From: Candidatus Nanoarchaeia archaeon | GTDB taxonomy: Archaea; Nanobdellota; Nanobdellia; Woesearchaeales; ARS49 | Direction of reading: 5' to 3' | Assembly (NCBI GenBank): GCA_041489925.1 | Contig: JBGPSD010000002.1 | Coordinates: 55,449-119,448 of the forward strand | DNA: 64,000 bases | Part shown: piece after piece, positions 8,090-58,816 of the stretch | Numbering within the stretch: the first letter of the stretch is position 1 | Layout: each line of letters begins with the position of its first letter | Program-made: the position numbers and the translations under genes | Notes under the pieces: model-generated | The model's database searches: none | Seen by the model: the letters and a program-made list of their open reading frames with translations, nothing else | Told to the model about the DNA's origin: nothing

Positions 8090-8178
8090 AGCCTCCGACG
8101 GGAGTTGCACCCGCGACCTCAGCCTTTTTGCTGCGATTGCATACCAAGGCTGCGCAATAGCTACTATGCTACGGAGGC
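8090..8178 (-). tRNA. tRNA-Thr(GGU)-like gene with a ~16-nt intron in the anticodon loop; T-loop atypical (TGCAACT)
   Basis: Reverse complement folds as acceptor GCCTCCG/CGGAGGC, anticodon stem CAGCC/GGCTG with loop TTGGTA + insert, T-arm GCGGG-TGCAACT-CCCGT, discriminator T. Confidence 0.55.
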
Positions 8179-47784: not shown

Positions 47785-47949
47785 ACTGCACCTCTTTTTG
47801 ACTGTAAGGCAAAAAGAGACCAGCCAACCTCAGTTGGTGCTGCCTCTCTTTTGTATGAAGACGGTGATAACTTAATTCGTTTATAAACTTTTCCCTATGT
47901 TCTGCGGTGTCTGTCAGCACTGCACAATTTTATAAATCACACTGCGGTT

Positions 47950-57098: not shown

Positions 57099-57566
57099 AT
57101 GATGCTTGATTCTTCAATGCATTGGCTCTCCAACTGGGGGGTTATTGTGCCAATAGCCTGCATTTTGCTCACCCGCGACAAAAAAATAATCCTGCGCGGC
57201 TTGATTGCTGTCATTCTAACATTTTTTATCACAGATGTGCTGAAGTTGGTTATTGCCCGCCCAAGGCCGAATGCAATTGGTTCCTCCTGGTTCCTAAGCA
57301 CTCCTGCTGATGCTTACAGCTTCCCAAGCAAGCACGCATCAACAGCGTTCTCGCTGGCAACATCAGTGATTTTGCACAGGAAAGTTCTTGGCTGGATTGC
57401 AGCAATATTCGCAGTGCTGATAGCAGTTTCGCGCATTTACCTCGGCGCGCATTACTGGGGCGACATAATTGCAGGCGCTGTTCTTGGCATTCTGATTTCT
57501 TTTGCAACAGACAAAGCCGCAAGGTATTTTGAGAAAGGCAAAAAGAGCAAGCAAAGGAAATCTTGA
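57099..57566 (+). CDS. PAP2-family phosphatase (undecaprenyl-diphosphatase-like)
   Basis: KLVIARPRP, PSKHAS, SRIYLGAHYWGDI: the three PAP2 motifs. Confidence 0.7.
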   Translation: MMLDSSMHWLSNWGVIVPIACILLTRDKKIILRGLIAVILTFFITDVLKLVIARPRPNAIGSSWFLSTPADAYSFPSKHASTAFSLATSVILHRKVLGWIAAIFAVLIAVSRIYLGAHYWGDIIAGAVLGILISFATDKAARYFEKGKKSKQRKS

Positions 57567-57612
57567 GGAATCGTTTTGTTTCTGGCGCGGTACGCGCCCG
57601 TTTTTGGATAGT

Positions 57613-57620
57613 TTTTTAAA
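57613..57620 (+). promoter_or_regulatory. AT-rich TATA-like element upstream of tRNA-Leu(CAG)
   Basis: tttttaaa about 33-40 bp upstream of the tRNA 5' end. Confidence 0.3.
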
Positions 57621-57652
57621 GACTGAATAAGAGAATTCTACTGTAGTTATTT

Positions 57653-57736
57653 GCGCCGGTGCCGGAGTGGCCAAACGGGCAAGCTTCAGGAGCTTGTGGC
57701 TTAGTGCCTACGCAGGTTCGAATCCTGTCCGGCGCA
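57653..57736 (+). tRNA. tRNA-Leu(CAG), no intron
   Basis: Acceptor GCGCCGG/CCGGCGC, anticodon arm CAAGC-TTCAGGA-GCTTG, 16-nt variable arm, T-arm GCAGG-TTCGAAT-CCTGT, discriminator A. Confidence 0.8.
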
Positions 57737-57930
57737 TTGTGAGTGTAGCGAACAAGCGAGGACAGGCTCGCTGACCGCTGGTCAGCCGCTGTCTGTCCGG
57801 CGCATCACGAAGTGAGCGACGGCAGGCTCGTCAATCGCATTGACCGCTGTCTGTCTGCCGCATCGTGAGCGTAGCGAACGAGCAAAGACAGGCTCGCTGA
57901 CCGCAGTCAGCCGCTGTCTGTCCGGCGCAT
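57737..57930. repeat. three tandem ~58-68 bp units, each ending in a copy of the tRNA-Leu 3' terminal 13 nt (ctgtccggcgcat) and each containing an internal palindrome
   Basis: Copies of ctgtccggcgcat at 57793..57805 and 57918..57930, and a degenerate copy ctgtctgccgcat at 57851..57863. Units 1 and 3 are nearly identical (..gtagcgaac.agc.aggacaggctcgctgaccgc.ggtcagccgctgtctgtccggcgcat). Confidence 0.65.
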
Positions 57931-57931
57931 C

Positions 57932-58816
57932 TTATTTCTTCACCAGCTTGTTATGCAAATGCAGAAGGTAATTTGCAATCTCTGTGTTCGCGCGCTTCAT
58001 GTCGCTGAGGACAAAGTCCATGCTTGGGCAGCTGTTGACTTCGATGAGCTGCCACCTGCCTGAGGAGTCTTTCATAAGGTCTATGCCGCACCATTCAAGC
58101 CCAAAGCATTTTGCGGTCTTTGTGCATATCGCTGCAAGCTTTTTGTCAGGCCTGAAGGTCCTGTACTTCTCGTTTTTCCAGAAGAGCTTTCCTTCTTTCC
58201 AGTTTTTGCCGTATTTGGTGATTGACTGGATTATTTTTCCGCCTGCAAGAGTCACCCTGTAGCTTACCTTGCCGTGGGGCACATACCTCTGGGCGACAAG
58301 GGGCATTATCCCTGTTTTCTTGTGCAGTGTTGAAATGACATGGAGTGCCTCTTCGTAGCTCATCGCCCTCTTGACTGCCTTTCCCGTGTCAGAGAACACG
58401 CCCTTGAAAACAACAGGCCCTTCCTCAAGTATCTGCCTGAGCTTTTTCCGCGATGCATTTATGTCCCTTGGAATGTAATAAGTGATTGGCGTTGGCAGCT
58501 TGTGCTTTACGCAGGTCTGGTAGAACAGCCATTTGTCTTCGCGGTAATAGAATGATTTTGACGAGTCAATCACGCGCTTGCCCAGCCCTTCAAATGTCTT
58601 GGCCATCTCAAGCGAGTCGTATGTGTTCGGCATGTCGCCCGCAGTGTTCAGCACAATTTGCAAGCCCCTTGACCGCTCCTTGAGTGTTGAGTATTCAATG
58701 TCTGCCTGAAGCGGAAACATCACAAGGTTGAACTTTTTCTTCAAAACAGGCAAGAGATGCTTTTCAGTCGGGCTTCCGCGCGGTGTTGCTATTATGCCCA
58801 GTGCAGGTTTTTCCAA
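57932..58816 (-). CDS. ATP-grasp family ligase (RimK-like)
   Basis: ATP-grasp C-terminal signature ...WQLIEVNSCPS... and Lys/Arg-containing nucleotide-loop regions. Confidence 0.65.
   Translation of the reverse strand: MEKPALGIIATPRGSPTEKHLLPVLKKKFNLVMFPLQADIEYSTLKERSRGLQIVLNTAGDMPNTYDSLEMAKTFEGLGKRVIDSSKSFYYREDKWLFYQTCVKHKLPTPITYYIPRDINASRKKLRQILEEGPVVFKGVFSDTGKAVKRAMSYEEALHVISTLHKKTGIMPLVAQRYVPHGKVSYRVTLAGGKIIQSITKYGKNWKEGKLFWKNEKYRTFRPDKKLAAICTKTAKCFGLEWCGIDLMKDSSGRWQLIEVNSCPSMDFVLSDMKRANTEIANYLLHLHNKLVKK

Follow-up and report, generated by a model that had tools for sequence, protein, structure and literature searches.

What does it mean when the 3′ end of a tRNA gene is repeated several times over, directly behind the gene itself? 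The question is raised by a stretch of 64,000 nucleotides from a Candidatus Nanoarchaeia archaeon (assembly GCA_041489925.1, contig JBGPSD010000002.1, positions 55,449 to 119,448 of the forward strand; hereafter the window, in which positions are counted from the first letter), where three short hairpin-bearing units follow a tRNA-Leu(CAG) gene head to tail. A sequence-only reading of the window had called direct repeats of a tRNA 3′ end the classic footprint of integrase-mediated insertion and had offered several answers for this case: a decayed or iterated attachment (att) site, a hotspot used repeatedly, or a structured tandem repeat templated from the tRNA end. The observation of the reiterated tRNA-Leu 3′ end is confirmed, and its interpretation is partly supported. 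The best reading of the locus is that of a conserved tRNA-tail mimic combined with a recombination hotspot, and not the simple scar of one inserted element. Stated more fully, and put forward tentatively at rather less than even confidence, the array would be a three-copy tandem of a small element family, a mimic of the “top half” of tRNA-Leu lying in the trailer of its 3′ flank and shuffled by recombination between the cores of the units.

The tRNA-Leu(CAG) gene lies at 57653-57736 on the plus strand (called by ARAGORN, and by Rfam RF00005 with 53.9 bits); its acceptor stem is GCGCCGG/CCGGCGC, referred to below as type A, and its discriminator is A. A 13-mer, CTGTCCGGCGCAT, stands at 57725-57737; it takes in the final 4 nt of the T stem, CCGGCGC as the 3′ acceptor strand, A as the discriminator and the T that comes next. 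Exact copies occur at 57793-57805 and 57918-57930, as had been claimed, with none elsewhere in the 64 kb searched. A fourth match, at 57851-57863, has two mismatches and reads CTGTCTGCCGCAT. The count of 13-mers is weakly significant in itself, as 7 of 100 shuffles reach at least 4 matches with at most 2 mismatches. The first and third units (U1 and U3) share a 54-nt repeat with 87% identity at a spacing of 126 bp, their last 26 nt being 100% identical, and these extended repeats are beyond chance.

The three units lie on the plus strand and are 68, 58 and 67 nt long. U1 (57738-57805; 76.9 bits with R1, a covariance model of the units) has a long leader of type L1, followed by the pairs GCG/CGC, an 8-bp stem GGACAGGC/GTCTGTCC, the apical palindrome GCTGACC-GCT-GGTCAGC at 57770-57786 and a type-A 13-mer; it folds with a minimum free energy (MFE) of -31 kcal/mol (z -1.97). 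U2 (57806-57863; 75 bits) has a short leader of type S, carries CTGTCTGCCGCAT as a type-B 13-mer and has the apical palindrome GTCAATCGCATTGAC (GTCAAT-CGC-ATTGAC) at 57830-57844, which differs in sequence from those of U1 and U3. U3 (57864-57930; 79.2 bits) has a long leader of type L3 and again a type-A 13-mer; its palindrome, GCTGAC-CGCA-GTCAGC at 57896-57911, is one base shorter than the one that had been quoted for both outer units. The segments between the repeats measure 55, 45 and 54 nt and are homologous to one another at 69-87%, and a CRISPR array is ruled out by this mutual homology of its would-be “spacers”. The array has a G+C content of ~61%, against ~47% around it. The intergenic region is identical in the window, in GCA_041480225.1 (contig JBGOZN010000003.1) and in JGI 3300052988, and an assembly artefact can therefore be dismissed. 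Tandem Repeats Finder did not report the array, since its units are too divergent and too few, with less than two copies of the 126-bp super-period.

The repeated tRNA end is part of a larger unit with a common fold. An alignment of 14 unit instances from related DPANN contigs (68 columns, unit length 51-68 nt) gave a layout which runs, from 5′ to 3′, through a leader, G(R)CAGGCT(C/G)G, a variable palindrome of 6-7 bp with a 3-4-nt loop, CCGCTG(T/C) and the 13-mer. The leaders are of four types (L1, L3, S and S′), and the conserved cores are CAGGCTCG, CCGCTGTCTGTC and the 13-mer. In the fold, the pairs GCG/CGC are followed by GGACAGGC/GTCTGTCC and then by the apical stem, with the start of the tRNA-like 13-mer being used in the stem. 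Standard pairs fill 91.8% of the pair cells across the 14 instances, as opposed to 25-56% when the partners are slid, and in four of the six apical pairs both partners have changed (GCTGAC/GTCAGC, GTCAAT/ATTGAC, GTCAAC/GTTGAC, GGCGAC/GTCGRCC and GCCAAC/GTCGGC). RNAalifold independently predicts the two inner helices. Folding of the single sequences, which had been proposed as a check, gave for every unit a hairpin whose helix closes GC...GC with the tRNA-derived 3′ strand and leaves the terminal A-U unpaired. In one relative, L098, the S′ unit even has an acceptor-like stem of 7 bp without any mismatch, GCGGCAG/CTGCCGC, beyond which an A stays unpaired (z -2.69). The segment GCAGGCTCG of the unit is collinear with GCAGGTTCG of the tRNA T arm, a resemblance which suggests that the unit may be derived from the T arm plus the acceptor strand. 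The MFE fold of the whole region pairs the 5′ acceptor strand of the tRNA with the 3′ end of the last unit; this pairing is regarded as a consequence of the repeated sequence and not as evidence.

Of the earlier answers, that of a structured tandem repeat templated from the tRNA end fits best, with a shared fold, covariation and units only after tRNA-Leu. The unit would be a mimic of the acceptor/T-arm “top half”, presumably originating by partial duplication of the tRNA 3′ end: its 3′ strand copies the last 12 nt of tRNA-Leu (3′ half of the T stem, 3′ acceptor strand and discriminator A), its 5′ strand pairs with that copy, the variable palindrome takes the position of the T loop, and the final A (and U) are left unpaired. 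The units are specific in their occurrence. Over 163 kb, comprising the window and 24 related loci, model R1 matched the known units only, always directly 3′ of tRNA-Leu and in the same orientation, plus one weak match described at the end, and a generic dispersed repeat, one of the outcomes that had been named as fatal to the first interpretation, was not seen. The tRNA upstream is CAG throughout except for CAA in L051, where the unit stands behind this other isoacceptor, tRNA-Leu(CAA), at a different locus. Rfam gave no family besides tRNA (other matches had E > 2, far below gathering scores), and the representative genomes of GTDB, among which the source genome is not included, held no true unit copies: 32 single matches to the unit pattern in unrelated bacteria and one in a Micrarchaeota coding region are consistent with chance.

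The units are also conserved beyond their surroundings. U3 of the window has the same L3 leader, at 33 of 33 nt, as units of L093 and L098; identity is 91.5% for S′ units and 85-87% for L3 units, the differences lying mostly in the palindrome and the end type, against a background between the same lineages of 71-83% for PAP2 plus RimK DNA and 77-81% for the promoter spacer, and the four unit types persist across lineages. Conservation above that of flanking coding DNA, judged from these alignments, points away from neutral decay. It thereby makes improbable the explanation that the units are a neutral by-product, namely decaying partial tRNA duplicates that slippage or unequal crossing-over has multiplied into a minisatellite and that serve no purpose as RNA or DNA. 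That explanation draws on the copy number of 0-3, which shows the units to be dispensable, on the 126-bp super-repeat formed by U1 and U3, on a truncated unit in L094 and on a decayed tRNA-Leu pseudo-copy of ~75 nt in L053 (2214-2283) and L039, evidence that partial duplication of the tRNA and subsequent decay do happen at this site. The pseudo-copy lies immediately 5′ of the functional tRNA-Leu, starts with GCGCCGGTGCCGG, retains GCCAAAC and TCGAAT and occupies the tRNA position of the sister strains. Yet neutral decay would have to leave a 33-nt leader identical and units 85-92% identical while neighbouring coding DNA stands at ~72-83%, to keep a fold through differing palindrome sequences and to maintain four unit types across lineages, all in compact genomes with stop codons touching the tRNA, which are expected to purge useless DNA.

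How variable the site is became apparent from its relatives. These were gathered through protein homologues of the two genes that enclose the array, together with a pattern scan of metagenome contigs, of whose 44 matches only L051, L053 and L068 were real; about 25 related loci resulted. The upstream gene, a PAP2-family phosphatase gene (57099-57566, plus strand; open reading frame (ORF), Pfam PAP2 and homologues), is the anchor of the locus and was used as bait; the other, convergent on the tRNA, encodes a RimK-type ATP-grasp protein (57932-58816, minus strand; ORF and Pfam) and has its stop codon at 57932-57934, 1 nt from the array end. In the common layout the PAP2 gene is followed by tRNA-Leu on the same strand, and these are faced by convergent Amidohydro_2, RimK and CHASE2-cyclase genes, in this order from the tRNA outwards. 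An Amidohydro_2 gene, with or without an AIRS gene, stands between RimK and the tRNA in most relatives, and both are missing from the window; tblastn with the two against the whole 64 kb gave no match, which rules out their relocation within it.

The number of units ranges from none to three. Units are lacking in L041, L042, L045 and L101, where the stop codon of the convergent gene lies 0-1 nt past the tRNA discriminator; one unit is present in L035, L038, L039/L053, L040, L051, L068 and L092, with a single truncated one in L094; two are present in L036 and L098/L100, and at least two in L093, whose contig ends within the second; and three occur, among these loci, in the window only. Even among contigs that share an identical RimK protein (99% identical to that of the window) the region is hypervariable: within this group L038, L039/L053, L040 and L092 have one unit, L036 has two and L035 has one unit and an AIRS-family gene, beside which the window has three units and lacks Amidohydro_2. 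The units are mosaics of modules even where the RimK protein is 100% identical. L098, with RimK DNA 73% identical, has two units and, like the window, a RimK gene abutting the array, and in L068 a TPR gene comes after a single short unit. Occupied and empty sites thus both exist among the relatives, with 0, 1, 2 or 3 units and with AIRS, TPR and LAGLIDADG segments present or absent, which settles the comparison that had been suggested as a check; an absence of variation between strains, the other outcome that would have counted against the first interpretation, is far from what was found.

The acceptor stem of the tRNA varies as well. Besides type A, the tRNA-Leu(CAG) genes include type B (GCGGCAG/CTGCCGC) and type C (GCGGCGG/CCGCCGC); the three alleles have matching 3′ strands, differ in their anticodon stems and are identical in their D, variable and T arms. 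That they segregate even among RimK-identical contigs implies allele replacement by recombination. The match at 57851-57863 has to be seen in this light: it had been described as degenerate, and the two mismatches are real, but decay is not their cause, as the CTGTCTGCCGCAT of U2 is the exact type-B tRNA-Leu 3′ end of sister strains. In U2 it pairs with the CGGCAG of the unit itself (CGGCAG/CTGCCG), and the keeping of this pairing explains why U2 retains a B-type end in an A-type genome. Unit ends are of type A or B, at times in mismatch with the resident tRNA: A-type units stand behind B-type tRNAs in L035, L036, L040 and L092 and behind a C-type tRNA in L068, while all ends in L098 are type B. 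As B- and C-type 5′ acceptor strands cannot pair with A-type ends, the latter are not displaced native 3′ ends. An intron, a split tRNA and an alternative 3′ exon are ruled out by the same inability to pair of the 5′ acceptor strands in these five loci.

Several rearrangements end on the tRNA-end copies, and they lend weight to the idea of a hotspot used repeatedly, which is supported by the 0-3 units of close relatives and by an insertion, tRNA inversions and gene deletions that end on 13-mers. In L035 (GCA_964353335.1, 4682-6005), whose tRNA is of type B, an S′ unit and the AIRS gene plus upstream region come next, and after them a second perfect CTGTCTGCCGCAT, placed precisely where the tRNA and the Amidohydro_2 stop codon adjoin in the ancestral state. 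With 13-bp direct repeats of the tRNA end on either side, this 1.3-kb segment is an insertion; a circle excised from it would carry the junction ...TTTGCCTTTTTG-CTGTCTGCCGCAT-AACGCAGTTAGC. A kilobase-size segment bounded by tRNA 3′ repeats was found in this relative only and not in the window. In L096 (883-1060) the promoter and tRNA are inverted; the PAP2 stop codon is in direct contact with the end of the tRNA, and a single 13-mer, CTGTCTGTCCGGTGCA, is left behind at the AIRS-like stop. In L093 (1477-1583) inverted units abut the PAP2 stop codon, and in L094 RimK and Amidohydro_2 are missing and the truncated unit stands ahead of AIRS. In L094 (GCA_040961595.1, 4090-4878), and also in L095, a 262-aa LAGLIDADG_3 ORF (26.3 bits, cut-off 22.5) lies between PAP2 and tRNA-Leu and overlaps the tRNA by 10 nt on its 5′ side; being homing-endonuclease-like, such a gene could drive gene conversion of the tRNA alleles at the hotspot. 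Altogether, RimK, Amidohydro_2, AIRS, the TPR gene and the LAGLIDADG ORF are present or absent by lineage, with endpoints at tRNA or unit ends.

These rearrangements are also the ground on which the explanation ranked second, att sites acting at the level of DNA, has to be weighed. A site-specific recombinase that targets tRNA-Leu would use the 12-13-nt copies as its core sites, and the units would be leftover or duplicated att arms, produced by repeated integration, excision and inversion, possibly through an integrase acting in trans whose gene lies elsewhere or has been lost. The AIRS segment of L035 with its unit and promoter between perfect 13-bp repeats CTGTCTGCCGCAT, the inversion in L096 between 13-mers at the PAP2 and AIRS-like stops, the inverted units of L093, the lineage-specific gene content beside the tRNA with its endpoints at tRNA or unit ends and the mixture of A- and B-type ends in one array are all what such a recombinase would leave behind, and an archaeal integrase, Int-pTN3 (pTN3, tRNA-Leu), is documented to rearrange chromosomes at tRNA-Leu genes (PMC5495485). 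Nevertheless, the search for an integrase that had been asked for at the outset turned up no Pfam domain of this kind, nor one of a recombinase or transposase, among the 61 ORFs of the window or in the annotated flanks fetched with the related loci; a novel recombinase could have escaped the Pfam scan, many ORFs being without a Pfam match. Three pattern scans of IMG/VR (for the unit and for the T arm and 3′ end of tRNA-Leu) gave no matching attP, only phage tRNAs of other specificities or chance matches. The 45-55-nt segments between the repeats, moreover, are mutually homologous, structured and better conserved than coding DNA, unlike random element remnants, and A-type ends behind B- or C-type tRNAs are not displaced native ends. 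The palindrome spacers of 3-4 nt are too short for the overlap region of a tyrosine recombinase. On this evidence the att explanation appears rather unlikely, and the classic integrase footprint or decayed att site of the sequence-only reading was not demonstrated.

The gain and loss of units and the shuffling of their modules are established by the comparison of strains. Under the favored top-half mimic, both would proceed module by module through recombination between the repeated cores CAGGCTCG, CCGCTGTCTGTC and the 13-mer, and deletions, insertions and inversions in the adjoining DNA would likewise end at these cores. The state of the window (units in the order L1-S-L3, Amidohydro_2 lost, RimK abutting the array) would then be one outcome among others. 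There is a far less probable variant, a long shot in our estimate, in which the hairpins with their 12-nt cores are attC-like folded recombination sites of an unrecognised cassette-exchange system at the tRNA-Leu 3′ end in DPANN archaea, so that AIRS, Amidohydro_2, RimK and TPR genes and “empty” units would be moved by a recombinase or homing-type nuclease missed by current profiles; the LAGLIDADG-like ORF adjoining the tRNA in one lineage bears on this variant. Integron attC sites resemble the units in being short imperfect palindromes with conserved flanks and variable centres near the 3′ ends of single genes, with “empty” units and a gene content that varies between strains. They differ in that no IntI and no R/L core motifs (GTTRRRY) were found here, that the units are anchored to the tRNA end and that the AIRS segment does not have units at both of its ends. 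An integron attC array proper is ruled out, as no IntI integrase was found and the unit flanks CAGGCTCG and CCGCTGTCTGTC are without the GTTRRRY core.

What the units might do depends on how they are transcribed. The only A/T-rich promoter-like motif inferred to be able to drive plus-strand transcription of the tRNA and units is an archaeal TATA-like box, TTTTTTAAAG, at 57612-57621 (plus strand), ~32 nt 5′ of tRNA-Leu, in a block, GGATAGTTTTTTAAAGAC, which is conserved in L035, L092, L053 and L098. Within the units there are no A/T-rich motifs, and T-rich stretches first appear after the last unit; the units are presumably co-transcribed with the tRNA. They would be read through from the tRNA-Leu promoter as a 3′ trailer, in which each unit is a putative site of tRNase Z or RNase P-type processing, by analogy with t-elements. 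Each would, in addition, put a stably folded segment between convergent transcription units that otherwise meet end to end. At nearly every locus the gene that converges on the tRNA (Amidohydro_2, AIRS, RimK, PAP2 or CHASE2-cyclase) has its stop codon 0-4 nt away from a discriminator A, be it that of the tRNA or that of the last unit. Such junctions are present in the window (57931-57934), L035, L041, L042, L045, L053, L092, L094, L096, L098 and L101, and the T after GCA often doubles as the first base of the stop codon on the reverse strand.

This close abutment invites the opposite explanation, in which the minus strand is the functional one and the units, read in reverse complement (at loci that lack them, the tRNA itself), form a hairpin in the 3′ untranslated region of the convergent gene, stabilising or terminating its mRNA just past the stop codon. 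The fold is nearly as good on that strand, with 87.7% of the cells paired, a weak strand preference which also counts among the difficulties of the favored account. However, the plus strand does pair slightly better, no oligo-U tract follows the hairpins on the minus strand, and the copy of the tRNA end in the 3′ strand and the occurrence with tRNA-Leu only are left unexplained, which makes this explanation quite improbable.

Other findings weigh against the units as top-half mimics as well. In many of them the acceptor-like helix is imperfect, with 3 bp and an internal loop, and where an S′ leader is combined with an A-type end only 5 of 7 positions pair; nor does a given type of leader always go with one type of end. 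In place of the canonical T-loop motif GGTTCRANYCC the units have GGCTCG and the hairpin, the Rfam tRNA model gives the units no score even at E <= 10, ARAGORN makes no call on them, and local alignments of the unit bodies outside the 13-mer with the tRNA are no better than those of shuffles. Template switching at the DNA level can give short-loop palindromes “compensatory” changes without selection on RNA, the high conservation of the units could stem from recent horizontal spread instead, and their absence from several relatives shows that they are dispensable.

The kind of arrangement proposed is known already, from tRNA-trailer repeats carrying the tRNA 3′ end and from tRNA-like processing elements, and the array differs from these as a variant. 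At tyrT/tyrV of E. coli, three 178-bp repeats with 95% identity overlap the 3′ end of tyrV, and rttR (small RNA RttR) and tpr are annotated; the tyrT repeats are reportedly co-transcribed with the tRNA and processed into a stable RNA, in work ascribed to Egan and Landy in 1978, Rossi and colleagues in 1981 and Bosl and Kersten in 1991. In both systems tandem units stand immediately 3′ of a tRNA gene and each has a copy of the 3′-terminal nucleotides of the tRNA. The DPANN unit, in an archaeal host, is ~60 nt long instead of 178 nt and unrelated in sequence; it consists of a single extended hairpin pairing with the tRNA-end copy, has no small ORF, and belongs to a locus with strong strain-to-strain shuffling of modules and linked changes in gene content. 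The second parallel, the t-elements, are partial tRNA mimics in longer transcripts, and their ends result from cleavage by RNase P and tRNase Z, both in plant mitochondria (PMC1920247) and in Haloferax volcanii (PMC4326828). The units may resemble them in having an acceptor/T-stem-like helix which ends in an unpaired discriminator-like A, although this helix is a perfect acceptor mimic in the S′ unit of L098 and imperfect in many other units. T-elements, though, keep GGTTCRANYCC and a cloverleaf-like fold, whereas the DPANN units have a long variable hairpin for the T loop, are missed by the tRNA covariance model, and are tandem and attached to the parent tRNA. With the att sites of archaeal elements that integrate into tRNA genes, the locus shares direct repeats of the tRNA 3′ end at insertion boundaries (AIRS in L035) and inversions that end at tRNA-derived sequences, and tRNA fragments left by integration are common in archaea (PMC9897764). 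It differs from them in that no integrase was found, that the repeats of the window are 12-13 nt long and bound conserved 45-55-nt hairpins, and that the ends do not follow attL/attR logic.

If the units are indeed processed top-half mimics, they would be an archaeal, tandem and strain-variable counterpart of the t-elements and of the E. coli tyrT repeats, and tRNA-processing enzymes would also shape the ends of non-tRNA RNAs in ultra-compact DPANN genomes with touching convergent genes. Whatever their function, a 12-13-nt copy of a tRNA end suffices to mark the endpoints of whole-gene insertions, deletions and inversions between near-identical strains. As a natural marker, the locus is therefore well suited to following micro-diversity and recombination in uncultured archaea, and it is a caution for tools that call integrated elements from repeats of tRNA fragments.

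As for its surroundings, the window encodes L10e, an ATP-dependent DNA ligase and a NOG1-type GTPase, as in a DPANN-type archaeon, and the homologues of the flanking genes belong to metagenome-assembled genomes of DPANN, Aenigmarchaeota and Nanoarchaeota. Directly after the PAP2 stop codon, at 57584-57605 on the plus strand, GGCGCG-GTA-CGCGCC followed by CGTTTTT forms a terminator-like hairpin with a T-run, which is kept in L035, L092 and L098. A tRNA-Lys(CTT) was called at 8090-8178 on the minus strand, with no tRNA-end repeats or units after it; its 89 nt exceed the length of a standard tRNA-Lys, which suggests that it carries an intron.

The weak match of model R1 mentioned above (21 bits) lies at 47805-47856 on the plus strand, in a divergent intergenic region with no tRNA nearby, and it has no tRNA-end mimic. 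Its sequence is AAAAGAGA-CCAG-CCAACCTCAGTTGG-TGCTGCC-TCTCTTTT, and its inner palindrome, GCCAACCTCAGTTGG, exactly matches that of the L068 unit, with one Y position, and is followed by GCTGCCT as in the L068 and L035 units. This hairpin may be a distant relative of the hairpin module, or a product of chance.

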